Assembly: GCA_004297215.1 (NCBI GenBank)
Contig: SCUM01000001.1
Span: 353,181-417,180, forward strand
Source: Patescibacteria group bacterium
Lineage (GTDB): Bacteria; Patescibacteriota; Patescibacteriia; UBA9934; GWF2-40-263
Reading direction: 5' to 3'
DNA length: 64,000 nucleotides
This document shows positions 4,746 to 20,246 of this stretch, in pieces; within the stretch, counting starts at the first letter, position 1; each line of letters starts with the position of its first letter. Position numbers and translations under genes: made by a program. The notes below the pieces were generated by a model. It had not been told where the DNA came from, made no database searches, and worked only from the letters and a program-made list of their open reading frames with translations.

Positions 4746-5795
4746 CTACACGAACCACTTCCTCATCTCCTTCGCGCTTGCCTTGCGAGAGCGCATGATC
4801 TCGCGGCGCTTGCGCAGCATGCGCGGGAGCCGCGCGAGCGCTTGGACGAACGCGCCGAGGTTGCGCGTCTCGAACACGGCGACGTACGCCAGCTGCAGCG
4901 CCTCCCGGCACAGGATCCACGGCGAGGCGAGCAGGCCGTTCACGAACAGCTCGTCCTTCATGAGCATGTTCCAATGGTTGCGGGCGGAATAGCCGGAACG
5001 CGCCTGGGAACGCCCGAACCGTTCGCGCAGGCGCTTGAACGCTCCGGCCGACTCGCTCCCGCCCATGGCGCGATGGTGGTGCGCGCGCGCCTCCGGCACG
5101 AACAGGGCGGAGAACCCGGCGAGGCGCAGCCGCCAGGCAAGGTCGACGTCTTCCTTATACGCGAAGAAGTCCGCGTCGAAATATTCTTCGTCGACCTTCA
5201 CGTCCTCGAGCGCGGAGGCGCGATAGAGCGCGAGCGCGCCGGAAATCCCGAACACGTCGGTCAGGGCGTCGTACTGTCCGCGATCGAGCTCGCCCGCCCC
5301 GCGATCGGCCACCGTGCGAGCGCGCGTGCCCCGCAGCCCCGTGGAATCGATGACGTCGCTCTTCACCGTCTCGCGCAGGTCCTCGTCTTCCAGGCGCTCA
5401 CGCGAGGCGCGCAACAGCTTCCCTCCGAGGCTCCCGGCCTCGGGGTGCGCATCGGCGGCCGCGACGATCTTCTCCAGGAAGTCCGGCGCGAGGATGACGT
5501 CCGGGTTCACCACGAGCGCGTAACGGCGCGCGAGGTCGTCGGAGGGCCAATGCGAGAGGGCGTAGCGGATCCCCTGGTTGTGCGCGGCCGCGAACCCGAG
5601 GTTGCGCGCGTTGCGCAGGTACGCCACGCGAGGATGATGCGCGCGCACGTACGCCTCGCTCCCGTCCACGCTGCCGTTGTCGATGATGAACGCTTGGAAA
5701 TCCCGGAACGTCTGCGCTTCCACGGACGCAAGAAGCTCCGGCAGGTACCGGAGGCTGTTCCAAGCGACGATGGTGAGATGGACGCGGGGAGTCAT
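4746..5795 (-). CDS. Glycosyltransferase family 2
   Basis: MTPRVHLTIVAWNSLRYLPELLASVEAQTFRDFQAFIIDNGSVDGSEAYV. The start was trimmed to MTPRVH (ATG at 5793-5795); the ORF-track extension MKNVGCRIFFILHPTVYILHPT is the translated hairpin repeat. Confidence 0.85.
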   Translation of the reverse strand: MTPRVHLTIVAWNSLRYLPELLASVEAQTFRDFQAFIIDNGSVDGSEAYVRAHHPRVAYLRNARNLGFAAAHNQGIRYALSHWPSDDLARRYALVVNPDVILAPDFLEKIVAAADAHPEAGSLGGKLLRASRERLEDEDLRETVKSDVIDSTGLRGTRARTVADRGAGELDRGQYDALTDVFGISGALALYRASALEDVKVDEEYFDADFFAYKEDVDLAWRLRLAGFSALFVPEARAHHHRAMGGSESAGAFKRLRERFGRSQARSGYSARNHWNMLMKDELFVNGLLASPWILCREALQLAYVAVFETRNLGAFVQALARLPRMLRKRREIMRSRKASAKEMRKWFV

Positions 5796-5797
5796 GG

Positions 5798-5868
5798 CGG
5801 TAGGATGAAGGATGTAGACTGTAGGATGAAGGATGAAAAATATCCTACATCCTACATTCTTCATCCTA
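5798..5868. repeat. Word-palindrome hairpin of the gtaggatgaagg family (R5)
   Basis: gtaggatgaaggatgtagactgtaggatgaaggatg aaaaata tcctacatcctacattcttcatcctac. Confidence 0.75.
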
Positions 5869-5873
5869 CATAT

Positions 5874-7361
5874 TTATCTAAGCTTCTTCGTGACGTTGAA
5901 CCCGAGATAGGAGCCCAGCAGGAACCGCGTCTGCGCGTCGATCGCCGGCAGGGCGCCGAACAGGATGAAGGTGACGGGGAGCAGCAGCCACTGCGCCACC
6001 ATGAGCAGCCACGCCCATCCCTTCACCGATGCCGGGCGCGGCGGGAGCAGCGTGAGCGACAGGATCCCGGACACGAACACGCCGGCCATGGCGAGCTGCA
6101 TGATGTGCTGGAGCGTGAACGGGGCGGCCTGGATGAGCGCGTCCGGGTCGCGCACGAGCGCGAGCGGGAGCTGGCCGAACAGGAAGATGAGCAACGGCGC
6201 CGTGGCCCAGGTGTACATCCCTTCCAGGTGGTTGAACAGGTACCGCGCCTTCTTCATGAGCGGGATCCCTGGCGCGGCGCCAAACGCCGCGACCATCGCG
6301 GGAAGATGCTCCACCCCCCATGCCCAACGCCGCTGCTGCTTGTAGAGCGCCTTGAGCGCAGCCACGTACGTCTCCCCGGAAACGGCGTCCATGGACACGG
6401 GGAGGTACAGGGGCGTGACGCGATAGTCGCCGCGGTAATGCACGAACGCCTGCAGGAAGATGCGGCTGTCCTCCGAGACGATGTCCTTCTGCCAGAACCG
6501 GACGTCCTTGAGCATCTTCCACGGCATGGAGTGGCTGGAGAAGGTCCACAGCCGCTCGGGGCGCGCGAGCTCGCCCATGAGCCAGAAGGTGGTGCCGAAC
6601 GCGGCGATGCGCACCGGCGCCGGCGCGGTCCAGATGGTGTTGGAAAACAGCACTACCGGCTGGTAGCTGCAGCGCAGGGGGTCCTCGACGGTGAGATACG
6701 TGCGCGCGAGGTACGAGAAGTACTGCGGATGCACCACCGTGTCCACGTCGAACGCCGAAACGATCAGGTCCTCGTCCTTCAGGGTCGGGAACTCGGCGGT
6801 GAGGACCTCATCCGCGCGGTGTCCGGCCCAGTTGAGGTTGGATCCCTTCCCCGGGATCTCGTCCGGCAGCCCGGCGGGATGTTCCGTGACGATCAGCTTC
6901 TTGAAGCGGTGACCGAACTCGCGCTCGATCGCGGCGGCGTTCTTGCGGAACCGATGCGCGTCGCGCTCTTCGCCGGCAAGCACCACGATCATGCGCTCGT
7001 GCGGCACGTGGGCGGACAGGAGCGATCGCAGCGTGGCGCGGATGACCGACAGTTCTTCCTTGTACGTGGGGAGGAACACCAGGTGGTGGATGCGTTCATG
7101 CCCCGGGATCTCCCGCACCCGCGCGGCCCAGTCCACCTTCGAGGCGCGGCGCACTTCCACCCAGGCGATCACCAGGAAGATGATGAAATACGCCACGCGG
7201 AAGAACCAGTACAGGTCGAACACGATGATGAACACCACCACGTACACCGGGGCGAAGAACGACAAGGCGAGTCCAAGGATGAGCGTCCCCCACACGAGCG
7301 CCCCCGGAAGCATCTCCCAAAAGCGCATGCGGCCGTACTTATAGCCGTAAAAGCCGTCCAT
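5874..7361 (-). CDS. Membrane-embedded processive family 2 beta-glycosyltransferase (cellulose/chitin-synthase-like, QxxRW motif)
   Basis: 495 aa with N-terminal TM helices, a GT2 core (FDVDTVVHP) and the processive-GT signature YKQQRRWAWGVEH, followed by C-terminal TM helices. Confidence 0.8.
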   Translation of the reverse strand: MDGFYGYKYGRMRFWEMLPGALVWGTLILGLALSFFAPVYVVVFIIVFDLYWFFRVAYFIIFLVIAWVEVRRASKVDWAARVREIPGHERIHHLVFLPTYKEELSVIRATLRSLLSAHVPHERMIVVLAGEERDAHRFRKNAAAIEREFGHRFKKLIVTEHPAGLPDEIPGKGSNLNWAGHRADEVLTAEFPTLKDEDLIVSAFDVDTVVHPQYFSYLARTYLTVEDPLRCSYQPVVLFSNTIWTAPAPVRIAAFGTTFWLMGELARPERLWTFSSHSMPWKMLKDVRFWQKDIVSEDSRIFLQAFVHYRGDYRVTPLYLPVSMDAVSGETYVAALKALYKQQRRWAWGVEHLPAMVAAFGAAPGIPLMKKARYLFNHLEGMYTWATAPLLIFLFGQLPLALVRDPDALIQAAPFTLQHIMQLAMAGVFVSGILSLTLLPPRPASVKGWAWLLMVAQWLLLPVTFILFGALPAIDAQTRFLLGSYLGFNVTKKLR

Positions 7362-7373
7362 AATCGAAAGAAT

Positions 7374-7412
7374 CCTAACAAAAAACCGCCCTTGAGTCTA
7401 GGGCGGTCTTCG
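7374..7412 (-). terminator. Rho-independent terminator downstream of the 7420-8310 gene
   Basis: The minus strand reads ggcgaagaccgccctagactcaagggcggttttttt: a 7-bp GC stem followed by a U-run. Confidence 0.6.
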
Positions 7413-7419
7413 CCATATC

Positions 7420-8310
7420 CTACTCTATTTCCTTCCATTCCTTCTCACGCTCCTTCATGCTTTTTTCCAACTTCTTACGGACATCCTGAATCGTCATCGG
7501 CGTATGCGCCTGCTTCCCCCGATAATCGACCCAGAGTTCCCCATTGCCGACATCGAGGTGCGAGCTTTCGACAAAATCCCTATACGTTCCACCAAGCTCA
7601 TTGATGCTCTCGACGTTTATAGACTTACCCATTGCCATAAGCGTCAGCCAGTCACTGAAATAATTGTGACTCACGGAAACTAGGTGGGTAGGTCTGTCCG
7701 GAAAGTGTTTTTTTGAAAGCTGATCCATGCGTTCAACATAATCCACAGCTAGGAAAGCGTATTCTTCCGGCGTTTGGATGAATTCGGCTGGATTAATCGT
7801 CGAAGGATCTATGTCTGGATGTGTACGTCTAAGTTCCTCCTTGAGCGCGGGGATTTCTTCCTTCCTTGCGGTCCAAATCTTTCCTACGATGGACTCATCT
7901 TTGTAGAGGCTGCGCCATTTTTGAAAAGCTGAGTCAGCCAGATCCTCCTTCCTGAGACTGTATCCGAGCATGGTTTGCGGAGCCGTCTCCGTGATGAGAA
8001 GTTTCTTGTCAGTTCTGGTTTTAGCTTCATCAATTTTCTCAGCATCCTTCACGGATACAGCTTCGAAGTCGCCATCTTGTGAAACCAGGTCGAGTAAACT
8101 TGATTCCAAGGTCCGCTTTGTATCAATTGCACGGCCGATGTTTGAAGAAAAAAGCACAATGACAGCAGGAGCAGGAATCTCCTTTAGACGTTCGTAAAGC
8201 TCATGCGCCTTTTTCTTGGCCTGTTCAATCCCCTGTTCGGATAATCCTTCCCCCTTCTTGTGTCCGTGACGCATGATCTCGAACTGTGTGCCCGACCGTC
8301 GTTCCGTCAT
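7420..8310 (-). CDS. Histidine phosphatase superfamily protein (phosphoglycerate-mutase-like branch), paralog 1
   Basis: The N-terminus FEIMRHGHKKGEGLSEQGIEQAKK matches the RHG catalytic motif plus the LTEKGREQA-type segment, and a second His motif is present (LVSVSHNYFSDWL). The start was set to MTERR (ATG at 8308-8310), which forms an ATGA overlap with the stop of the 8307-9521 gene. It lies in the lower-GC island. Confidence 0.6.
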   Translation of the reverse strand: MTERRSGTQFEIMRHGHKKGEGLSEQGIEQAKKKAHELYERLKEIPAPAVIVLFSSNIGRAIDTKRTLESSLLDLVSQDGDFEAVSVKDAEKIDEAKTRTDKKLLITETAPQTMLGYSLRKEDLADSAFQKWRSLYKDESIVGKIWTARKEEIPALKEELRRTHPDIDPSTINPAEFIQTPEEYAFLAVDYVERMDQLSKKHFPDRPTHLVSVSHNYFSDWLTLMAMGKSINVESINELGGTYRDFVESSHLDVGNGELWVDYRGKQAHTPMTIQDVRKKLEKSMKEREKEWKEIE

Positions 8311-9521
8311 AGATGAGAGGTATATTTGGCAGCCCGTTTTAAGACCGTAATCTTGCCGTTGGTGGCATCGAGCTCGATCAGGTCCCCATCGCGGATGATA
8401 TCCGTCGCGTGATGGGTGGCTACGAGACACGGTACGCCAAGTTCACGAGACATGATGGCGGCATGCGAATTCAATCCGCCCTGGTTCGCGATGATTCCAC
8501 CGGCCTTTTTCATGAGCGGAACGAACTCGGGCGAAGTCGTCTCCGTGACCAGGATGGTTCCCTGCGGCATTTCCATCAGGTGTACGCTCTTTACGAAATC
8601 CTCATAACTCTTCCCGTATTCCGGCAAGATGACACGGGCGCGCGCTGTCACTTTTCCACGGTTCGCGATCGTCCCGCCGCATTCCGTCATGTTCGAATAA
8701 TCAGGTTCTGCGAAACGCCCGAGAACTAATTTCTTGTCGATACCATCCAATTCGTACCCGCGTCCGTTCTCGGAATAAATCAGGTACGAATGCTGACGTG
8801 CCCTGATGATGGTATCAGGCGCCAGAGTACCTTGTTCTAACAGGCGAATGAGCTGCTTAATGCTGTAAAATTTCACGTCTTCCACGTTCGTCCCATGTTG
8901 TGCGGCGGCCAAATCCGCATAATGGTAGAGGCAGGTGGTGAGCAATTCGACAAGTAAAGGGCGGCTCTTCATCTTGAGGTCGTCACCCAAGACCAACATG
9001 TTTTTCTCCAACAAGGCGTCGGTATTTTCGAAACAGCCATCTGTGAAGAAAAATTCGGTCTTTTCAAAGTAGTAATACAGCTTCTGGACAATCGCCTTGA
9101 GGTCGCAGACGTCATTGATGGTAACGACGGTCTTTTGACGGGACGTCTTGAGATAGGATTCGCTTTCAGCGATGACTTCTCGGAATCCTTTCTCAAAACG
9201 AACAAAATTTTCCTCTTGTGAAAAGATAGCCCGGCCGATCTTCATGGTCTCCGCCGCGATGGAACGTGGGATGTACGAGCGCAACAGGTCATTTTCATAC
9301 ATCCACAAGAAGCCCCGGTCGAAGTAATGCTGCGCGGAAAAATCTATAAGAAGATAACCCAACCCCTTGAAGTTAAAGGCACGGATATAGTCTTTCGGCG
9401 TAATTTTCTCCAATTGATACATAGGCATGATCATTAGCATGTAGCCTATCAAAAACATCGACACGAGGCTAGATTTTCCCTGAAAAATTAAGATGGGTTC
9501 TGTAACTACTGCAAAAACCAT
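8307..9521 (-). CDS. PEP-utilizing-enzyme mobile (phosphohistidine swivel) domain protein with a novel N-terminal region, paralog A
   Basis: The C-terminus GGIIANQGGLNSHAAIMSRELGVPCLVATHHATDIIRDGDLIELDATNGKITVLKRA is the PEP-utilizers His domain (GGxxSHAAIxAREL). The roughly 300-aa N-terminal region has no domain I can recognise. GC is about 48%. Confidence 0.7.
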   Translation of the reverse strand: MVFAVVTEPILIFQGKSSLVSMFLIGYMLMIMPMYQLEKITPKDYIRAFNFKGLGYLLIDFSAQHYFDRGFLWMYENDLLRSYIPRSIAAETMKIGRAIFSQEENFVRFEKGFREVIAESESYLKTSRQKTVVTINDVCDLKAIVQKLYYYFEKTEFFFTDGCFENTDALLEKNMLVLGDDLKMKSRPLLVELLTTCLYHYADLAAAQHGTNVEDVKFYSIKQLIRLLEQGTLAPDTIIRARQHSYLIYSENGRGYELDGIDKKLVLGRFAEPDYSNMTECGGTIANRGKVTARARVILPEYGKSYEDFVKSVHLMEMPQGTILVTETTSPEFVPLMKKAGGIIANQGGLNSHAAIMSRELGVPCLVATHHATDIIRDGDLIELDATNGKITVLKRAAKYTSHL

Positions 9522-9722
9522 TTTTTCAAGGGTTTTCGGTTGACAAGGGCGTTAATTTCTGCTATCTTTCAACGTTGTTCGTTCCATCCAATCTACTGTT
9601 GAAAGCGGTATTTTGCAGCCGAAGTTCGGCGTCAAATAGCCGTTTTCAACAAAAGGAAAATCGTGGATCAATGGTTTGTTCCAAGATGTACCTACGGCAT
9701 ACGTGAAAGGCAGGGTAGTTAA

Positions 9723-10499
9723 GTGACCGACACGTCAAAACTCGAGACCAGCAAGCCGGCCTCTGACCTCATCCATGGCCTCTTCACCCCTCTCGCGCGC
9801 AAGCTCGAGATGGTGAGGAACTATCCCGGGGTGACCCAGGAGATGATCGCGGAGGCGCTCGATGAGGCGAATGTCTCTGGACTCCTCGGCCGCTACGAAG
9901 CCGAGAGCCCAGAATATCCGCGGCTCGACGTGGTCGTTACGGTGTACAGGGAGAGCGTCCTGGCAACGTTCCTGTACGCGCGCGATCGGATGCGCGAAGC
10001 CTTCGGTGAAGGATTCTCCCAGTGGGAACATGCCTATGGAGAGGGTGTGGATGAAAACCGCATCCGACTCCTCGAAGGCGTCCCAGATCATCGCAACTGT
10101 GTTCGTATCGAGGTGCTAGACCTCCGCGATTGTTGTGAACCCCAAAAGCGCACTCTGCCCGAAAGAGATGGGTATATGCCTAGCGCGTTCCGTGTGCCGA
10201 GATCGGCCACCTTCGCACCCATCTACGCCGGGGCTCAAAGCCCGAGGTGGGTACGTCAGATGAGCACCGCCGACGACGACGTTCCTTGGGTTATTTGTGG
10301 TGGAATTGAGCTCAATGATCCTTGCCTCGATAAACTGTGGGGAGCCTTGCCGGGTGTCAGGCTCTTTGAGGGGAAAGCTGAACTCTTCGCCATGAAGTGT
10401 GACTGCTGGGTCTATCCCAACTGTGCCATGCCTTCCCTCTGGACACGAGAAACCGTGGGGACCCATCACAGGTATCAGTTTATCTATGGGAAAGGTTGA
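9723..10499 (+). CDS. Hypothetical protein (orphan, island-associated)
   Basis: A 258-aa ORF with GC3-biased codon usage and no motif I recognise. It is followed by a terminator hairpin. Confidence 0.45.
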   Translation: MTDTSKLETSKPASDLIHGLFTPLARKLEMVRNYPGVTQEMIAEALDEANVSGLLGRYEAESPEYPRLDVVVTVYRESVLATFLYARDRMREAFGEGFSQWEHAYGEGVDENRIRLLEGVPDHRNCVRIEVLDLRDCCEPQKRTLPERDGYMPSAFRVPRSATFAPIYAGAQSPRWVRQMSTADDDVPWVICGGIELNDPCLDKLWGALPGVRLFEGKAELFAMKCDCWVYPNCAMPSLWTRETVGTHHRYQFIYGKG

Positions 10500-10585
10500 T
10501 CTCTTCACCTACGAATGTGACCGCTGTCTCTATGACGGCCACGCTTTGCCTCCCCTCCGGGAGTGAGCGTTGGCACAGGGATGCT

Positions 10586-10639
10586 CGGAACTCGAAATCC
10601 TCGGTCTTCGGACCTTAGATCTCAGTTCCGGGCTTTTTT
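10586..10639 (+). terminator. Rho-independent terminator after the 9723-10499 gene
   Basis: cggaactc...gagttccg stem enclosing an inner hairpin, followed by ggcttttttac. Confidence 0.55.
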
Positions 10640-10645
10640 ACATAC

Positions 10646-10921
10646 TCAAAGATATATTTCGCGCCGATGTCCGATCTTTACGATCTCGATGCGTTTCGCT
10701 GATGCGTTCACGATGCCGATGAGACGGTAATCCCCGACCCGGAACCTGACGTCACCCGCGGCCGGCTCGCGCAGGCGCTTCGCGAACGCGGACGGATTCG
10801 ACTGTTTCCCGAGCCAGACGAGCTTGTGCACGATGCGGCGCGCGACGGCGTGGTCGAGACTCCGCAGGTCCTTCTCGGCCTGCGTGGTCAGGACCAGCTT
10901 AAATGCCATAGGCCTTGGCAA
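10646..10921 (-). CDS. RelE/ParE family type II toxin
   Basis: A 91-aa basic protein ...RFRVGDYRLIGIVNASAKRIEIVKIGHRREIY with the RelE/ParE fold signature. It overlaps the upstream antitoxin by 23 nt. Confidence 0.7.
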   Translation of the reverse strand: MPRPMAFKLVLTTQAEKDLRSLDHAVARRIVHKLVWLGKQSNPSAFAKRLREPAAGDVRFRVGDYRLIGIVNASAKRIEIVKIGHRREIYL

Positions 10922-11177
10922 GATCGGCGATGGAAACGATCTCTCCCTTCTTCAATCCTTGTCGCGCCTTCTTCACGCGTGCTCGCAACGTGCGGCTCGA
11001 CGCGGCTTCCAGGTCTTCGAGCAGCTCGTCCATCTCCGCACTGGAGAAGAAGAATCCGAGCGTGGTGCTCCCGCGCATCACGCGCGTGACGTCCCGAAGG
11101 GTCTTGGAAGGATTCTTCTGGACATCGCGGATCGAGGCGACGTGTTCCTTTGCCAACAGCTGGTAGACCTTTGCCAT
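10899..11177 (-). CDS. Type II antitoxin (Phd/YefM-like) partnered with the RelE/ParE toxin
   Basis: A 92-aa acidic protein (…ELLEDLEAASS…) immediately upstream of the toxin and overlapping it, the classic antitoxin-toxin operon arrangement. Confidence 0.5.
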   Translation of the reverse strand: MAKVYQLLAKEHVASIRDVQKNPSKTLRDVTRVMRGSTTLGFFFSSAEMDELLEDLEAASSRTLRARVKKARQGLKKGEIVSIADLAKAYGI

Positions 11178-11226
11178 ATCGTATGTAGATTATTACATAC
11201 TTTATATCGCGGCGCAGAACCGTCCG

Positions 11227-12243
11227 TCAAGCCCGTTTCAAGATCCTCACGACCCCCTTCTCCGCGTCCACTTCCACCTCATCGCCATCTTTCAGAACTT
11301 TCGTCGCGACCTTGGTGCCGATGATGCACGGCTTCTTGAGTTCACGCGATACGATGGCGGCGTGGCAGGTGATGCCGCCCTCATCGGTGACGAACGCGGC
11401 GGCACGGCGCATCGCTGGAAGGAAATCCGGGGTGGTCATCGTGGAAACGAGGATTTCCCCTTCTTGGACGGATGCTACTTGCTCACGCTTCTTCAAGACA
11501 CGGACCCTGCCGCTCACCTTCCCTTTCTGCGCGATCTGCCCTTTGAGCTCCCCGGCCATTTGCGCTTCCTTCGCAGGGTCGACCAAGACGATATCCGTAT
11601 GATCCTGCACGTACTCATGGAGGGAAATGGCCCCTTGCGGAATACCGTCGACGAACAGGTACTTCTCGCGCCGAGCGCGAAGGGTCGCCGGGTCGATACC
11701 AGCTGCAAGGTCTGCCATGGTGACGTACCAGGTGAGATCCTCGTTCCCCGGCAGCAAGGCCGCCAGCGTCTTTTGGATATAAATTTCAGCGTCCACGAAA
11801 AACGTGTCGCGGGCGCGCAACTCCAACGCCAGGTCACGAGCGGATTGGAGCGAATCCTCGCTGGTAATCACGTAAAACAGCGCGAGCCAATTTGCGAGAG
11901 CGACGCGCGTCTTTTGCAGCGTACCCTTGAATCCCGCGACGGTCGTCTCGGGTATTGCCCAAATCGACATCAGTTCGGACAATTGCCCTTGATACTCGGC
12001 GACCTTCGAGCGCACGAGTTCCAGGTCTTGTCCGTACGCGCGCCCCGCATTCGCGACGATCCAGGTATTCGCCTCCTTGCGTACCCAGATTTCAATGATG
12101 CCATCCGCGCAATCGATGAGCAGCGCCGGGCGCGGAACGGCCGTGTCCCCGAACTTCTCCGGGACATCCACCAAGAAAGTCTGCATCCAGACTTCCTGCA
12201 CGATTAAGGTTGATTGACGGCTATACAGCTTCTCGAAGGTCAT
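11227..12243 (-). CDS. PEP-synthase/rifampin-phosphotransferase-like protein with linker/central and phosphohistidine swivel domains but no ATP-grasp domain, paralog B
   Basis: MTFEKLYSRQ...GRVRVLKKREQVASVQEGEILVSTMTTPDFLPAMRRAAAFVTDEGGITCHAAIVSRELKKPCIIGTKVATKVLKDGDEVEVDAEKGVVRILKRA. The start was set to the ATG at 12241-12243, 32 nt downstream of the ATP-grasp gene stop. Confidence 0.7.
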   Translation of the reverse strand: MTFEKLYSRQSTLIVQEVWMQTFLVDVPEKFGDTAVPRPALLIDCADGIIEIWVRKEANTWIVANAGRAYGQDLELVRSKVAEYQGQLSELMSIWAIPETTVAGFKGTLQKTRVALANWLALFYVITSEDSLQSARDLALELRARDTFFVDAEIYIQKTLAALLPGNEDLTWYVTMADLAAGIDPATLRARREKYLFVDGIPQGAISLHEYVQDHTDIVLVDPAKEAQMAGELKGQIAQKGKVSGRVRVLKKREQVASVQEGEILVSTMTTPDFLPAMRRAAAFVTDEGGITCHAAIVSRELKKPCIIGTKVATKVLKDGDEVEVDAEKGVVRILKRA

Positions 12244-12275
12244 AATTCTACGTCCCTTCAGGCACGCTTCAATCC

Positions 12276-13223
12276 TCACGACCCGCTTAGCGTCGTGATC
12301 GGCCGGCTTTGGACGATGTAAAACGTCCCGCCCTCCATGGCCCATTCGATGTCGCACGGGAAACCGTAATGTGCCTCGATGCGCTGGCAGATTCCGCCGA
12401 TGTCGCGGATCTGATCGGGAGAGATCTTTTGCGCGTTTTTCTTTTCCGCTGGCACGGGGATCTTCTCATTCCCGCCGGTCGAGCGCACCATCATGAGTTC
12501 CTGCTCGGACACGTTCACGTCGATGAGCGACTTGTCGGTCTTGTCGACGACGTACGAATCCGGCGTCACCTGCCCGCCCACGATCATCTCCCCCAGGCCC
12601 CAAGCCGCCTCGATGATCATCTGGTTGCGGTCCTCCGTCACGGGGTGGACCGTGAAGGTGATGCCGGACACCTCGGACTGCACCATCTTCTGCACCACGA
12701 CGGCCACCGACACGTGCGTGTCCACCATCCCCTTTTCGTTGCGGTACACGATGGCGCGTGGGGTGAACAATGATGCCCAGCAGCGCTTCACGTTCACGAG
12801 CAGCGTCTCGTGCGTCGTGTTGAGGTAGCTCTCCAGCTCCCCGGCCCAGCTGGCGACGGAAGAGTCTTCGGCTGTGGCGGACGAACGGACCGCGACGAAC
12901 TCGGCACCGAGCGCGGCGAACGACGCCTCGATTTCTTTCCCGAGGTCCTCGGGAAACTTCGCGTCATGAATGAGGTCATGCAGCACGCGCGACGCACGGT
13001 CTACGGAAGCCACGTCCTCGTAGTTCACCTTGGCGAGCTGCGCCTTCACTTCCTGGGTCAGGTCCGTCTCCTCAAGAAACCGATCGAACGATTCCGCGAC
13101 GACGACAAATCCCGGCGGCACCGGGATGCCGGCTTTCGTCATCTCCCCAAGCGACGCCCCCTTGCCTCCCGCTTCGCCGACATTTTCCTTTCCGAGCTGT
13201 TCGAACGGTTTCACGAAAGGCAT
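12276..13223 (-). CDS. Stand-alone PPDK_N-type ATP-grasp nucleotide-binding domain protein (PEP synthase / pyruvate phosphate dikinase N-terminal domain)
   Basis: MPFVKPFEQLGKENVGEAGGKGASLGEMTKAGIPVPPGFVV...AVRSSATAEDSSVASWAGELESY...DIEWAMEGGTFYIVQSRPITTL. It ends where full-length PEP synthases continue into the central/His domains. Confidence 0.8.
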   Translation of the reverse strand: MPFVKPFEQLGKENVGEAGGKGASLGEMTKAGIPVPPGFVVVAESFDRFLEETDLTQEVKAQLAKVNYEDVASVDRASRVLHDLIHDAKFPEDLGKEIEASFAALGAEFVAVRSSATAEDSSVASWAGELESYLNTTHETLLVNVKRCWASLFTPRAIVYRNEKGMVDTHVSVAVVVQKMVQSEVSGITFTVHPVTEDRNQMIIEAAWGLGEMIVGGQVTPDSYVVDKTDKSLIDVNVSEQELMMVRSTGGNEKIPVPAEKKNAQKISPDQIRDIGGICQRIEAHYGFPCDIEWAMEGGTFYIVQSRPITTLSGS

Positions 13224-13227
13224 ATGA

Positions 13228-14670
13228 TCAGGCTCGTTTCAAGATTGTCACGATTCCCTTCTCCGCGTCCACCTCTACCTCATCGCCGTCCTTGAGCACC
13301 TTGGTCGCGATCTTCGTGCCGATGATGCAGGGTATTTTCAACTCCCGCGATAAGATTGCCGCATGGCAGGTGATGCCGCCTTCGTTGGTGACGATAGCGA
13401 CGCACTTACGGAGAAACTGCATGAAATCCGGCGAGGTCATGGAGATTGCCAGGACGAACGGCTCATCGGGTACTGCCTCCTTCGGATGCGCAACGACCCG
13501 CACGATTCCCCTTGCCTTCCCCCTGAACGCGACCTGTCCACGCACTTGATCATGTTTTCCCTCATCGGTTCTAACAGCATCGAAAATTTTTTTTGCGTTT
13601 TCACCGACCACGTAACTGCCCTTTTTCCCGTTTTCCCAATACACGAGCAAGCCACCGTCTCGCCTTGCACCAAGCAGGTCCTTGTACGTCTTGTCCTGCA
13701 GTTTCGCCAGCGTCAGTTCGCCAGCATACGAATATTTCAACGCGTCGTGGCTGACATCAAATTTTTCCGCCAACCCGCCTAGCGCCCAGTCGATTAACGC
13801 GAACAGCCGCTGTTCGTAAGCCATGCGCTCGTCGCGGTTGTACTGACAATACCCAAAGAGCGAGAAAATGTTCCGTTCCTGCGTGTTTGCGCCGAGCTTT
13901 TTCAAGATGGCCTGTTTGGCCTTCGCCAATACCTTCTGTTCCTTCGGGTTGAATTTCTGTGCAGCTTCGGCATCCCTCAGCACGTCCTCAGCCGAGTACT
14001 CGACGTACCCGTTGAAATTCGACTTGGCATACGCGAACGCGCGTGCCAACCGCTCGGCGGCCTTCCTTTTGTTGACGGCCCGGCGTATTTTTTTCGAAAT
14101 AACGATTTGCCGTTTTACCGTTTCGGAAATTTCCGAACTATGGAAAAGGGTTGAAAAATGTGCCTGCCGTTGATCCAGCGGGACACGCTTCTGCTCCAAC
14201 CACCAGTTCGTCCAGTCGGTCGCCATGTCCCCGATCATGGCTGCCAATGGCGAAACCGCCCAAATGTCTTCCAACACCCGCTGGCACTCGTGAACCAATT
14301 CGACCAATTGCTCTCCAGACAGCATGGAGAAGGCTTTGCCGCCGTATCGATGCCACAAGCGATCGGATTGCGCTTTGACCTTGTCCCAACGCCGAAGATA
14401 CATTCTGAAGTTTTTTCCCGACAAGAAATAATCCAGTACGGAATATCCGAACATGCGGACGTTCAGTTTGATGAAGGATGTCTCTCCCTGGTATAGCCAA
14501 TATCCATCCGCGAACAGGAGGGAAAAGCGGTAGTAACGCTCGATGTGCTGATCGGCCCATACCTTCATGTAAGGATCCAGAAACGCTGGCGTCCCCGGCC
14601 TCTGAGCGACGAGCCATGTCTTGGATTCGGGCAAAGGCGGATGCGGATAGGAAAATCGTACGGGATTCAT
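13228..14670 (-). CDS. PEP-synthase/rifampin-phosphotransferase-like protein with a roughly 390-aa central domain and a phosphohistidine swivel domain but no ATP-grasp domain, paralog C
   Basis: C-terminus ...VRGQVAFRGKARGIVRVVAHPKEAVPDEPFVLAISMTSPDFMQFLRKCVAIVTNEGGITCHAAILSRELKIPCIIGTKIATKVLKDGDEVEVDAEKGIVTILKRA. Its 3-prime roughly 170 nt are about 80% identical at DNA level to the 3-prime end of 11227-12243. Confidence 0.7.
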   Translation of the reverse strand: MNPVRFSYPHPPLPESKTWLVAQRPGTPAFLDPYMKVWADQHIERYYRFSLLFADGYWLYQGETSFIKLNVRMFGYSVLDYFLSGKNFRMYLRRWDKVKAQSDRLWHRYGGKAFSMLSGEQLVELVHECQRVLEDIWAVSPLAAMIGDMATDWTNWWLEQKRVPLDQRQAHFSTLFHSSEISETVKRQIVISKKIRRAVNKRKAAERLARAFAYAKSNFNGYVEYSAEDVLRDAEAAQKFNPKEQKVLAKAKQAILKKLGANTQERNIFSLFGYCQYNRDERMAYEQRLFALIDWALGGLAEKFDVSHDALKYSYAGELTLAKLQDKTYKDLLGARRDGGLLVYWENGKKGSYVVGENAKKIFDAVRTDEGKHDQVRGQVAFRGKARGIVRVVAHPKEAVPDEPFVLAISMTSPDFMQFLRKCVAIVTNEGGITCHAAILSRELKIPCIIGTKIATKVLKDGDEVEVDAEKGIVTILKRA

Positions 14671-15443
14671 ACACGCATATTCGCCTCTACGAGAGAGAGC
14701 GGGGCCGGTATTTCGTCCTCTCTGTCGTAATGCGTGCGGCCATTGAGCGCCACATCAAGCGCAACTAAGCTCGACATGTGGCCTACGCCGTAAAAGAAGA
14801 TGGGGAGTCCCTCATTCGCGTGCACGACCTCTTTTAATTTCAGCACCTCCTCACGCAACTGCGCTGCCCTCTTCTTCAAGATTGAGTCCTCACGAGCAAG
14901 ATCCTGATTGACCGCAGTAAAAAATAATTCCATCTCCCGTGCATGGCCTTTTCCTCCTCCCGCACTCGAGATATATTGGCTCAACTCCTTATCGTCTTCC
15001 TGGTCTTGCTGCGCGATCCGCTGCATGAGTTGCAACATGCCTGGAGCTTCTTTGGGCATGTCGGACGTTCCCGTCGTCCGGATTCCCATATCCGTCGTCG
15101 ACTCCCCTATCGTGTCCGTATAAATCTGCTTGGTCCCGCTTTCACGGATATGGTCTTCCAATGATTCTAGGATATATTCCGCTGTGAAACGCGTACGCGG
15201 ATAGTTCGTGGTCGAAAAAATCACGAGCGCGCGTTCGGGAAGCGATGAAAAAATATCTTGTGCAAGTGTTTCCATCTTCTCGAGACTGCGATAGGTAACC
15301 TCTGGATCAGAAATGTGCAGACGCTCGCAGATTTCCTTCCATCTCGCCTGCTGTTTGCCTGTTAAGCCGGACGCCTCAACGGTTGACCGTTCCTCCCCGG
15401 CTTTCATCTTTTCCCCGTGCCTGATAAGTGAGAATCTTTCCAT
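14667..15443 (-). CDS. Histidine phosphatase superfamily protein, paralog 2
   Basis: MERFSLIRHGEKMKAGEE...LTGKQQARWKEICERL is the RHG catalytic motif, and a second His motif is present (FFYGVGHMSSLVAL). Its stop forms an ATGA overlap with the start of the 13228-14670 gene. Confidence 0.65.
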   Translation of the reverse strand: MERFSLIRHGEKMKAGEERSTVEASGLTGKQQARWKEICERLHISDPEVTYRSLEKMETLAQDIFSSLPERALVIFSTTNYPRTRFTAEYILESLEDHIRESGTKQIYTDTIGESTTDMGIRTTGTSDMPKEAPGMLQLMQRIAQQDQEDDKELSQYISSAGGGKGHAREMELFFTAVNQDLAREDSILKKRAAQLREEVLKLKEVVHANEGLPIFFYGVGHMSSLVALDVALNGRTHYDREDEIPAPLSLVEANMRV

Positions 15444-15461
15444 ATAATCAAGGATGTTATC

Positions 15462-15492
15462 GAAAAACCGCCCTATTTACAAGGGCGGTTTG
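15462..15492 (-). terminator. Rho-independent terminator downstream of the 15508-16188 gene
   Basis: The minus strand reads aaaccgcccttgtaaatagggcggtttttcg. Confidence 0.6.
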
Positions 15493-15507
15493 GCCGTTGC
15501 GAGTATC

Positions 15508-16188
15508 TTACTTCTCGCTCGTGAGGTCCTTGCGGAGCTGCTCGAGCACGCGGTGCGCATGCTCCTTGCCGCCCAGGCCGAACGCGAGGCCGCCGGCGAG
15601 CGCGAGCATGGCCACCAGGCCCGTGAACAGCGTGTTGATGATGGCCGTCGCGATCTGCAGCTGCACCAGGGCGGCCATGAAGCTGAACACCACGATCGCC
15701 CACTTGGCGAGGCCGGCGAGGAAATCCGCCGAGGCGAGCTGGGCCGCTTCCACGGCGCTTTTCACCACCGAGCGGACGAAGTTGCCGAGCAGGATTCCGG
15801 CCAAGAGGATGACCACGGCGATGATGACGTTCGGGATGTAGATCACCACCTGCTTCAAGTAATCCGTGATCTGCTCCCAGCCGAGGATGTCGGTGGCCGC
15901 GATGAGGGACACGATGATGAAGAACCAGCGCACGATCCAGGCGAGCAGGCGGCCCACGTGCAGGCGCAGCCCGACGCGTTCGAGCGCGGCCTTGAGCTCA
16001 AGCTTGGACACGAGTTCGTCGAGCCGCAGCAGCTCCACCGCCTTAAGCACCACATGGCTTAGGATGGCGGCCACCACGAGGCCGGCCACGAACACGACCG
16101 CGGCCGCCAGGACGTTTGGCAACGCCAGGGTGATGTTCGTCCACACGCTTAGGAGGGTTTCTTGGAACACGTTGACCGTCGGGTTCAT
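15508..16188 (-). CDS. Integral membrane protein with conserved TM-helix repeats (MscS-associated TM_helix type)
   Basis: 226 aa with repeated hydrophobic helices bearing charged caps (…VVFVAGLVVAAILSHVVLKAVE… / …VVILLAGILLGNFVRSVVKSAVE…). Confidence 0.5.
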   Translation of the reverse strand: MNPTVNVFQETLLSVWTNITLALPNVLAAAVVFVAGLVVAAILSHVVLKAVELLRLDELVSKLELKAALERVGLRLHVGRLLAWIVRWFFIIVSLIAATDILGWEQITDYLKQVVIYIPNVIIAVVILLAGILLGNFVRSVVKSAVEAAQLASADFLAGLAKWAIVVFSFMAALVQLQIATAIINTLFTGLVAMLALAGGLAFGLGGKEHAHRVLEQLRKDLTSEK

Positions 16189-16204: not shown

Positions 16205-16636
16205 TTAGGAGTTTGATATATAGGGTATAACGTTTGAGGATTTGGGCAAGGTGATGTTGGGGGGTCGGTCATACACAGGGCTTACGAATCCAACACCCGG
16301 TGTTGGACGGTTGAACGCCCCTGAACCCATCAATTGTTCAAGGCTCTTTTTTTCCTCATTCGCGATGCCGAACACGGGAATGTTCCGCGCAAACGCGATC
16401 GCGTTCGCGATCGTCACGGACATGCGGCTTGCCGTGAAGGCCCCCGGACCCGTCACGACGCACACGCGGCCCGCATCCGCGAGATCGCACCCCCAGGAGG
16501 CCAGCGTCTCGTCGATGGCCGCGAGATACCGCTCCGGTTCGGCTTCCACTTCGGTCGTCCGTGCGAGCTTCCCGTCCTCCATCCATCCGATCGAAATGCG
16601 ACGGATATCCTGAGCAGAAATCACCAAAGACGTCAT
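16205..16636 (-). CDS. tsaB: tRNA threonylcarbamoyladenosine biosynthesis protein TsaB (YeaZ), minimal form with the N-domain only
   Basis: ...AGRVCVVTGPGAFTASRMSVTIANAIAFARNIPVFGI matches the TsaB GPGSFTGLRIG... core. It is only 143 aa. Confidence 0.7.
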   Translation of the reverse strand: MTSLVISAQDIRRISIGWMEDGKLARTTEVEAEPERYLAAIDETLASWGCDLADAGRVCVVTGPGAFTASRMSVTIANAIAFARNIPVFGIANEEKKSLEQLMGSGAFNRPTPGVGFVSPVYDRPPNITLPKSSNVIPYISNS

Positions 16637-20213: not shown

Positions 20214-20246
20214 AACGAAAAACCGCCCTGCAGGGGGCGGTTCTCG
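20214..20246 (-). terminator. Rho-independent terminator downstream of rplL
   Basis: The minus strand reads cgagaaccgccccctgcagggcggtttttcgtttg. Confidence 0.6.

Follow-up and report, generated by a model that had tools for sequence, protein, structure and literature searches.

What would a protein of the histidine phosphatase fold do next to a phosphate-carrying swivel protein, and why would the two genes stay together? The question is raised by a 64,000-nucleotide stretch of a Patescibacteria group bacterium (assembly GCA_004297215.1, contig SCUM01000001.1, positions 353,181 to 417,180), hereafter called the window, in which a low-GC island of 8.1 kb (7362-15507) encodes one ATP-grasp protein (F), three carriers with a C-terminal phospho-His swivel domain (B, E and G) and two divergent proteins with an RHG motif (A and H, the latter being EPO34_01885 in NCBI, on a contig of 842 kb). 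The best explanation is that this island encodes a multi-subunit dikinase of the phosphoenolpyruvate (PEP) synthase/rifampin phosphotransferase (RPH) superfamily. As far as the literature shows, two of its traits are new: the way in which a swivel carrier is strictly tied to a partner of the histidine phosphatase fold, and the cassette with several carriers.

Carriers, ATP-grasp subunit and RHG partners

The six open reading frames (ORFs) that a first-pass annotation, made from the letters alone, had placed in the island were all found at its coordinates, on the minus strand, and Pfam returned the domains that it had predicted for F and for the three carriers. F (12276-13223, 315 aa) is a stand-alone PPDK_N ATP-grasp nucleotide-binding subunit (PF01326, 338 bits, model positions 3-313 of 328), which shares 58-60% identity with the stand-alone protein L012_F332 and with the N-terminal parts of the L002 and L010 fusions (related loci are designated by L numbers). 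Its best NCBIfam score is obtained with PEP synthase (344 bits versus an equivalog cutoff of 598), and the RPH equivalog gives 288 bits over the ATP-grasp part. For F as well as for the swivel domains, true PEP synthase models outscore RPH and all the equivalog cutoffs are widely missed. None of the nine island proteins matches a PEP/pyruvate TIM-barrel family in Pfam or NCBIfam, and hidden Markov models (HMMs) built from the island proteins detected no further swivel, ATP-grasp or RHG copy in the window, in agreement with the earlier claims of a single ATP-grasp domain and a missing barrel.

B, E and G each end in a PEP-utilizers mobile domain (PF00391, 79-93 bits) whose catalytic His is preserved, and the motif GG..[SCA]HA[AS] is intact in 29 of the 29 swivel-bearing proteins examined (32 modules). 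Briefly, carrier B (8307-9521, 404 aa as the longest ORF, 88 bits) has a B-type N-domain and the motif GGLNSHAAI; carrier E (11227-12243, 338 aa, 93 bits) has an E-type N-domain, the motif GGITCHAAI and no RHG partner of its own; carrier G (13228-14670, 480 aa, 79 bits) has the motif GGITCHAAI and a large, mostly helical G-type N-domain, its AlphaFold2 model (predicted local distance difference test score 78) showing, beside the swivel domain, a small beta part and a long stretch of helices (about residues 74-339). The residue two positions before the catalytic His is thus Thr in E and G and Asn in B, not the Met of two-component and RPH-type dikinases. The three swivel domains are homologous (35-50% identity, with about 35% for B versus E or G). 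The N-domains have no detectable sequence relation to one another, except for a weak stretch of 50-66 residues before the swivel, and none to solved structures or to the RIF-binding domain; they measure 230-370 aa, versus about 430 aa for the latter, and represent specific, conserved families with long invariant motifs.

Orthologs helped to place the ends of these genes. The B orthologs L010_sw362 and L012_sw363, which are 40-42% identical to B and always have an A-type gene after them, align from residue 32 of the longest ORF, so that B probably starts near 9428, about 31 codons downstream of 9521; a gene caller chose 383 aa. E has a full-length ortholog in L010_sw342 (34% identity). G is annotated 34 codons shorter in NCBI (446 aa), which hides its ATGA overlap with H; the L015 ortholog, whose alignment begins at residue 1, speaks for the long form of 480 aa and for this overlap.

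Protein A (7420-8310, 296 aa), the A-type RHG partner, is a divergent member of the histidine phosphatase superfamily that passes the His_Phos_1 cutoff marginally (22.4 versus 21.7 bits), and five of the 18 members of its family match this model (best E 5.6e-10). Protein H (14667-15443, 258 aa), the H-type RHG partner, and its seven relatives do not match His_Phos_1, so that the PF00300 hit expected in both proteins was obtained, narrowly, in A alone; H is assigned to the superfamily by its fold and conserved residues, not by Pfam. Its best structural matches are MINPP/phytases, phosphoserine phosphatase, Shb17 and BPGM, with an alpha/beta phosphoglycerate-mutase-like fold. The two proteins had been described as paralogs. 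By BLASTP they are not similar (E 0.03-0.08), whereas hhalign comparison of the two families gives a probability of 95% (E 2e-8) with the motifs in register, which makes A and H distant paralogs that are linked at the profile level only.

The H family conserves RHG, YPRTR and VGH, and the A family RHG, IGRxxDT and VSH. Residues R8, H9, G10, R83, E114 and H222 (H numbering) are invariant or nearly so in the joint alignment, as are R14, H15, R60, T64 and H215 (fully invariant) in the alignment of the 18 A-family members, where RHG corresponds to R14-H15-G16; both proteins include a large helical insert. The hhalign comparison of the RHG profiles with one canonical His_Phos_1 protein (from L012) was not significant, no meaningful match to A, H or their profiles came out of the PDB by sequence, and neither protein matched an NCBIfam model, including the curated phosphoglycerate mutase equivalogs. 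We consider A and H as very divergent members of the histidine phosphatase superfamily in which catalytic activity has probably been retained. An exhaustive HMMER search of 1.84 billion proteins with the joint profile gathered 40 representatives at E <= 0.001, all of 319 aa or less, so that none of these RHG proteins can be a fusion with a further domain. Homologous sequences are very rare, with 3 clusters for A and 8 for H among 5.8 billion entries; a scan of viral contigs with the H family found no relative, and a metagenome scan with the A family found nothing.

Both couples of the window overlap by ATGA, as claimed in the first-pass annotation (ctATGAcg for B/A and gtATGAat for H/G), while G and F are 4 nt apart and F and E, in different frames, 32 nt apart. 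Beyond the window, wherever a contig gives usable context, the RHG gene adjoins a swivel gene; this holds for family members down to E of about 5e-8. Gene-neighbourhood comparison finds this couple in about 15 non-redundant related loci (the window, L002, L003, L004, L007, L010, L012, L015, L018, L020, L022, L024, L025, L026 and L029), which disposes of the suspicion that the pair might not be conserved, and the two genes are separated by -14 to 80 nt, in most cases by no more than 10 nt. B-type carriers are followed by an A-type gene in the window, L010 and L012 (B-type swivel proteins being 40-42% identical over their full length), and H-type genes by a G-type carrier in the window, L003, L004 and L015 (G-type swivel proteins being 43-63% identical). 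Orthologous couples keep their subtype and gene order, which supports the earlier proposal that each couple is a conserved functional unit.

Around the couples, the domain and gene arrangements are modular. Some loci combine a fusion with separate genes: swivel, A-like, fused PPDK_N with two swivel modules, then H in L002; fused PPDK_N with two modules, E-type, B-type, then A in L010; swivel, H, fused PPDK_N and swivel, then swivel in L018; fused PPDK_N and swivel, A-like, swivel, then H in L020. Elsewhere the order is PPDK_N, swivel, B-type and A (L012-L014), H, G-type with an ATGA overlap, and swivel (L015), H and G-type (L003 and L004), swivel and H (L007 and L017), HicAB, swivel and A (L026), or swivel, swivel and A (L029), and L022-L025 contain PPDK_N, swivel and H in varying order. 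The natural fusions of PPDK_N with swivel modules are found in L002 (1230 aa), L010 (1031 aa), L018 (656 aa) and L020 (680 aa), PPDK_N being split elsewhere. Two of them (L002:6279-9971 and L010:336-3431) are composed of one PPDK_N domain followed by two complete tandem swivel modules, each with its own catalytic His, an arrangement that we know of in no characterised dikinase. The idea that F and E are a single broken gene was rejected, since the stand-alone orthologs L012_F332 and L010_sw342 end and begin at the same residues and the PPDK_N genes of L022-L025 are split as well. As a side remark on provenance, the metagenome-assembled genomes (MAGs) of L017 and L018 are labelled Gammaproteobacteria (76 kb contig) and Bacteroidales (5 kb contig); mis-binning is possible because gene content and low GC resemble those of the Patescibacteria loci.

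What the partners may do

The established scheme of PEP synthase, PPDK and RPH is that the swivel His is phosphorylated by the ATP-grasp domain and then delivers the beta-phosphate at a second site (PMC4844700). By analogy, F, as the sole ATP-grasp subunit of the island, would move phosphate from ATP onto the catalytic His of the C-terminal swivel domain of B, E and G. The earlier proposal that the ATP-grasp protein works with the swivel proteins is supported by the natural fusions of F-type domains to one or two swivel modules, and from these, together with the homology to PpsAB and HpeHI, we infer that F would charge the three carriers in trans. The unrelated N-domains of B, E and G would then define the phosphate target of each carrier. 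B and G would each act as a co-translated couple with a dedicated partner, A for B and H for G, and the RHG His of the partner would take the phosphoryl group off the phospho-His of the cognate swivel. The partner could then free inorganic phosphate (Pi), in a reset or tuning of the carrier such as SixA performs for NPr, or hand the phosphate on. SixA, a member of the histidine phosphatase superfamily, takes phosphate off the phospho-His of the HPt domain of ArcB, of NPr and of Ndk (PMC7948535, PMC6282199, PMC12934123).

The reading that we favour, with a probability of about 0.4, is that A and H each receive the phosphoryl group carried by the swivel His of the cognate carrier. The coupling is tight, subtype-specific and order-conserved, so that A and H look like subunits of a complex; moreover, the intact RHG chemistry uses a phospho-His intermediate, and SixA provides a precedent in the same superfamily. 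Several points weigh against it. A partner that purely hydrolyses the phospho-His of the carrier would create an ATP-wasting cycle, for which a rationale is needed. The H-G couples of L003 and L004 are found on contigs of 10-13 kb without a PPDK_N gene, which indicates that the ATP-grasp gene is not always adjacent and that another phosphoryl donor may be used. Finally, the swivel domains cluster by type and not by genome, without general concerted evolution towards a shared partner, and identity between the swivel domain of B and those of E and G is only about 35%, so that it is not assured that one ATP-grasp protein serves all three carriers.

Concerted evolution of the swivel domains within a genome was indeed looked for, as a sign of a shared ATP-grasp protein, and is not seen generally, the domains clustering by orthologous type, with the exception of a local tract at the 3' ends of E and G. 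This tract (11227-11401, shared with 13228-13402, minus strand) extends over 175 nt with 81% identity, and the last 50 aa of the two proteins are 90% identical, versus 39% for the preceding 50; by its pattern, it is a product of local gene conversion or recombination between two otherwise unrelated genes.

The alternative that survives best is a metabolic kinase-phosphatase pair, in which the dikinase subunits would phosphorylate small molecules bound by the N-domains of B, E and G, as do RPH, HpeH and PpsA, and A and H would act on the product or on a later intermediate rather than on the carrier, giving activation then release, or a net migration of phosphate. We hold it to be somewhat unlikely. 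Most of the characterised members of the histidine phosphatase superfamily act on small molecules, as do the structural neighbours of H named above, and the Hpe pathway itself combines phosphorylation by a two-component dikinase with a later dephosphorylation (PMC12167813). Nucleotide or phosphate enzymes (CYTH, NUDIX, NTP_transf_2, LMWPc and canonical His_Phos_1) adjoin other loci. The two most distant RHG matches (E 1e-4 to 1e-5) are also without shown swivel coupling, which sets a boundary to the coupled clade and suggests an ancestral role on small molecules: the gene of L027 (region 1442-2718) has MazG-like and redox genes as neighbours, and that of L028 (region 32-1347, on a contig of 1.5 kb) a lumazine (DMRL) synthase gene. 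However, no third enzyme is conserved between the kinase and the phosphatase, and if kinase and phosphatase are translated together and target the same group, their effects would cancel out; the strict 1:1 pairing, matched by subtype and conserved in order, resembles subunits of a complex more than neighbours in a pathway, and the N-domains have no detectable sequence similarity to the RIF-binding domain. If the partner merely hydrolyses a metabolite, the finding shrinks to a new small kinase-phosphatase operon of modest interest. In L004 the gene that follows the H-G couple (8712-9809) has a faint match to GTP cyclohydrolase II (E 0.009); together with the lumazine synthase and MazG-like neighbours, it may give a very weak hint of a riboflavin- or nucleotide-related substrate.

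If the partner accepts the phosphoryl group of the swivel, as we favour, it could also act otherwise than as a hydrolase. In an ATP-driven His-to-His phosphorelay, the phosphate would pass from F to the swivel His of B or G, then to the RHG His of A or H and on to an acceptor molecule, with the histidine phosphatase fold as terminal acceptor and donor. The RHG protein could in this case replace the missing substrate domain and work either in phosphotransfer or as a mutase whose priming comes from a protein rather than from a bisphosphate cofactor. Such a relay seems improbable to us; if true, it would be a relay like that of the phosphotransferase system (PTS) built from different folds, and the first case of a dikinase swivel domain charging an enzyme of the histidine phosphatase fold. 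It would differ from the transfer from Enzyme I to HPr of the PTS, where the donor is PEP, in that the donor would be ATP via the ATP-grasp protein and the partner has the histidine phosphatase fold, not that of HPr; the relay of the island is itself hypothetical.

A mobile set of kinases inactivating xenobiotics or antibiotics, that is, an RPH-like resistance island with several substrate-specific acceptor modules for one ATP-grasp protein, is quite unlikely in our view. The 288 bits of F against the RPH equivalog over its ATP-grasp part would fit, as would the place of RPH within a wide small-molecule dikinase family of unknown specificity (PMC4844700), the foreign GC content with a toxin-antitoxin module, and the neighbours found elsewhere, among them methyltransferases, an NTP_transf_2 nucleotidyltransferase and a glyoxalase/bleomycin-resistance-like protein. 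PEP synthase models nevertheless give higher scores than RPH for F as well as for the swivel domains, and E and G keep the Thr of PEP synthase (GGITCH) where RPH-type and phenolic dikinases have Met (PMC12167813). The N-domains, at 230-370 aa, are shorter than the RIF-binding domain (about 430 aa) and show no detectable sequence similarity to it, and the phosphatase-fold partner would be left without a role.

Very unlikely, to our mind, is a conflict or defence module, either a regulated phospho-His switch or a futile cycle that burns ATP to AMP and two Pi through the swivel His and the RHG phosphatase, for abortive infection or addiction. On paper, the core genes alone would hydrolyse ATP; yet PADLOC gave no match, the viral contigs contained no relative, no sensor or effector domain is recognisable, and adjacency to mobile genes is equally expected of any horizontally transferred metabolic cassette. 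Finally, decayed PEP synthase fragments beside ordinary phosphoglycerate mutases, or an assembly or frameshift artefact, which the first-pass annotation had itself envisaged and for which one could invoke the PEP synthase models that are the best NCBIfam matches of F and the swivel domains (all far under the equivalog cutoffs), can be dismissed, as the same split genes with the same ends recur in many independent assemblies, the catalytic motifs are intact, the N-domains fall into specific, conserved families whose long motifs are invariant, nothing is left of a TIM barrel, and A and H, which match no mutase model or PDB sequence and belong to a family of their own with 40 members, are not ordinary mutases.

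Relation to characterised dikinases and phosphatases

The architecture had been presented as unlike any described system. This does not hold for the split design, because phenylphosphate synthase PpsAB, HpeHI and CreHI have been characterised biochemically: each comprises separate ATP-grasp and swivel-bearing proteins, both of which are required, and the swivel His is used (PMC12167813; PMC7500099, citing Narmandakh 2006). The separation of ATP-grasp and swivel, as well as the charging of a separate swivel subunit, is therefore not new. Like the island, these two-component dikinases, including phenylphosphoamidate synthase PasAB, keep the ATP-grasp, in a subunit of about 35-40 kDa, apart from a second subunit that ends in the His swivel domain, and lack a PEP/pyruvate TIM barrel; in them, phosphate travels from ATP to the swivel His and then to the acceptor (PMC12167813, PMC7500099).

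The differences are nonetheless numerous. The swivel subunits of the two-component dikinases have about 600-640 aa with an RPH-like domain of the RIF-binding type, whereas those of the island have 338-480 aa with three unrelated N-domains that show no detectable similarity to it; the residue before the His is Met in the former and the PEP-synthase-type Thr in E and G. The island has one ATP-grasp gene for three carriers and a conserved partner of the histidine phosphatase fold. The stimulatory third protein of PpsAB, by contrast, is said to carry CBS domains, in what Schmeling reported in 2004. The hosts also differ, the two-component dikinases being found in degraders of aromatic compounds and the island in Patescibacteria.

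RPH and the single-chain small-molecule dikinases are ordered as ATP-grasp, substrate domain and C-terminal swivel His, and the same order is found in the fused proteins of L018 (656 aa) and L020 (680 aa). In the island, these parts are split, and the central domains, of far smaller size, have no detectable sequence relation to that of RPH. RPH has neither tandem swivel modules, of which the L002 and L010 fusions have two, nor a phosphatase partner. PEP synthase and PPDK provide the best sequence matches of F (344 bits) and of the swivel domains, and E and G share with them the motif GGxT[CS]HAAI; the island differs from them by the missing TIM barrel, by parts encoded in separate genes and by a score of 344 versus an equivalog cutoff of 598 bits. 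SixA, for its part, shares the RHG catalytic core with A and H, and dephosphorylation of a phospho-His carrier is the activity that we propose for these two. It is, however, a minimal protein of about 160 aa whose gene forms no obligate couple with that of its target, while A and H have 258-296 aa with a large helical insert.

What distinguishes the system from PpsAB, HpeHI, CreHI and RPH is thus above all the obligate RHG partner, next to the small carriers with three unrelated N-domains, the GGITCH motif in E and G, the several carriers per ATP-grasp protein and the tandem fusions. No link of histidine phosphatases to swivel or dikinase proteins is described in the literature searched, where most subscription journals fall outside coverage. 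Enzymes dedicated to protein phospho-His are very few, SixA being the main bacterial example, and a family genetically locked to a swivel carrier would be a second, independent case. One ATP-grasp protein with several interchangeable carrier modules, in separate genes or in tandem fusions, would extend the subfamily of two-component small-molecule dikinases beyond aromatic catabolism. For Patescibacteria, whose metabolism is minimal and whose accessory genes are mostly unannotated, the cassette offers a testable function that travels horizontally.

Borders, composition and neighbours of the island

The island was described as poor in GC and bounded by terminators, and both traits were recovered. 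Its GC content is 54.1%, versus 64.4% in the rest of the window (67.2% and 65.5% in the 5 kb flanks), and none of 80 other segments of 8.1 kb falls below 61.5%; at third codon positions (GC3), the island genes range from 0.53 to 0.83, versus 0.86-0.93 in adjacent core genes. Two intrinsic terminators of the minus strand enclose it. The lower one (7383-7410), downstream of gene A, has a minimum free energy (MFE) of -22.7 kcal/mol (z -4.5) and consists of the hairpin ACCGCCCU-N7-AGGGCGGU followed by UUUUUU; the upper one (15464-15491), which belongs to the upstream core gene (15508-16188), has an MFE of -18.0 kcal/mol and a U-run. Both were established by folding and had been missed by a consensus terminator scan. 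The motif AAAAACCGCCCT...GGGCGGT is common to three terminator hairpins (7386-7406, 15468-15488 and 20223-20240), that is, three matches for 0.43 expected. The edge hairpins were considered as att-like direct repeats, and this was rejected because the third terminator, at 20223, carries the same motif outside the island; it looks like a recurrent terminator design or a small repeat of this genome, not specific to the island edges.

In other genomes, the GC content of related cassettes matches that of their surroundings (31-56%), and their neighbours include a serine recombinase, methyltransferases, a CBASS-like cyclase, a KAP NTPase and HicAB. The simplest reading is that the island was acquired horizontally, given a low-GC block in a high-GC genome, a toxin-antitoxin pair inside it and the neighbours that the cassette has elsewhere. 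The cassette has so far been seen mainly in Patescibacteria MAGs.

The toxin-antitoxin pair sits between the H-G-F-E genes and the B-A couple. It is composed of a ParE/RelE-type toxin of 91 aa (10646-10921, minus strand; ParE_toxin E 2.9e-8, PHROG RelE-like toxin E 1.3e-13) and a probable Phd/YafN-type antitoxin of 92 aa (10899-11177, minus strand), whose ORF overlaps that of the toxin and which is assigned from a weak YafN match (E 0.005) and its position directly upstream of ParE. A HicAB pair adjoins the cassette in L026, so that toxin-antitoxin modules recur beside it. The remaining ORF, C (9723-10499, plus strand, 258 aa), is an orphan: it matches nothing in Pfam, NCBIfam, PADLOC or PHROGs, and none of the related loci contains a relative. 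It is either a passenger without detected link to the system or no gene at all. PADLOC gave no match for any of the nine island proteins, the PHROGs search of the island returned the ParE toxin as its sole match, and Rfam and tRNA scans of the island were empty.

Some genes accompany the cassette in other loci and are absent from the window. A nucleotidyltransferase of 261 aa (NTP_transf_2/Polbeta) follows the A-type gene, directly in L012-L014 and after an ORF of 134 aa in L010, with an LMWPc phosphatase close to it and, in L012, a canonical His_Phos_1 protein (189 aa) beside it; the coordinates of this nucleotidyltransferase/phosphatase group are L012:5577-6362, L010:6882-7667 and L012:8428-9444. 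The genes that flank the island in the window are ordinary and encode family-2 glycosyltransferases, an MS-channel-like membrane protein and TsaB. The TsaB-like gene (16205-16636, minus strand), directly outside the island, has a GC3 of 0.69, below the 0.86-0.93 of its neighbours. On the other side, an ORF of 920 aa (4842-7604, plus strand) runs antisense to two glycosyltransferase genes and is a spurious long ORF of the kind usual in high-GC DNA.

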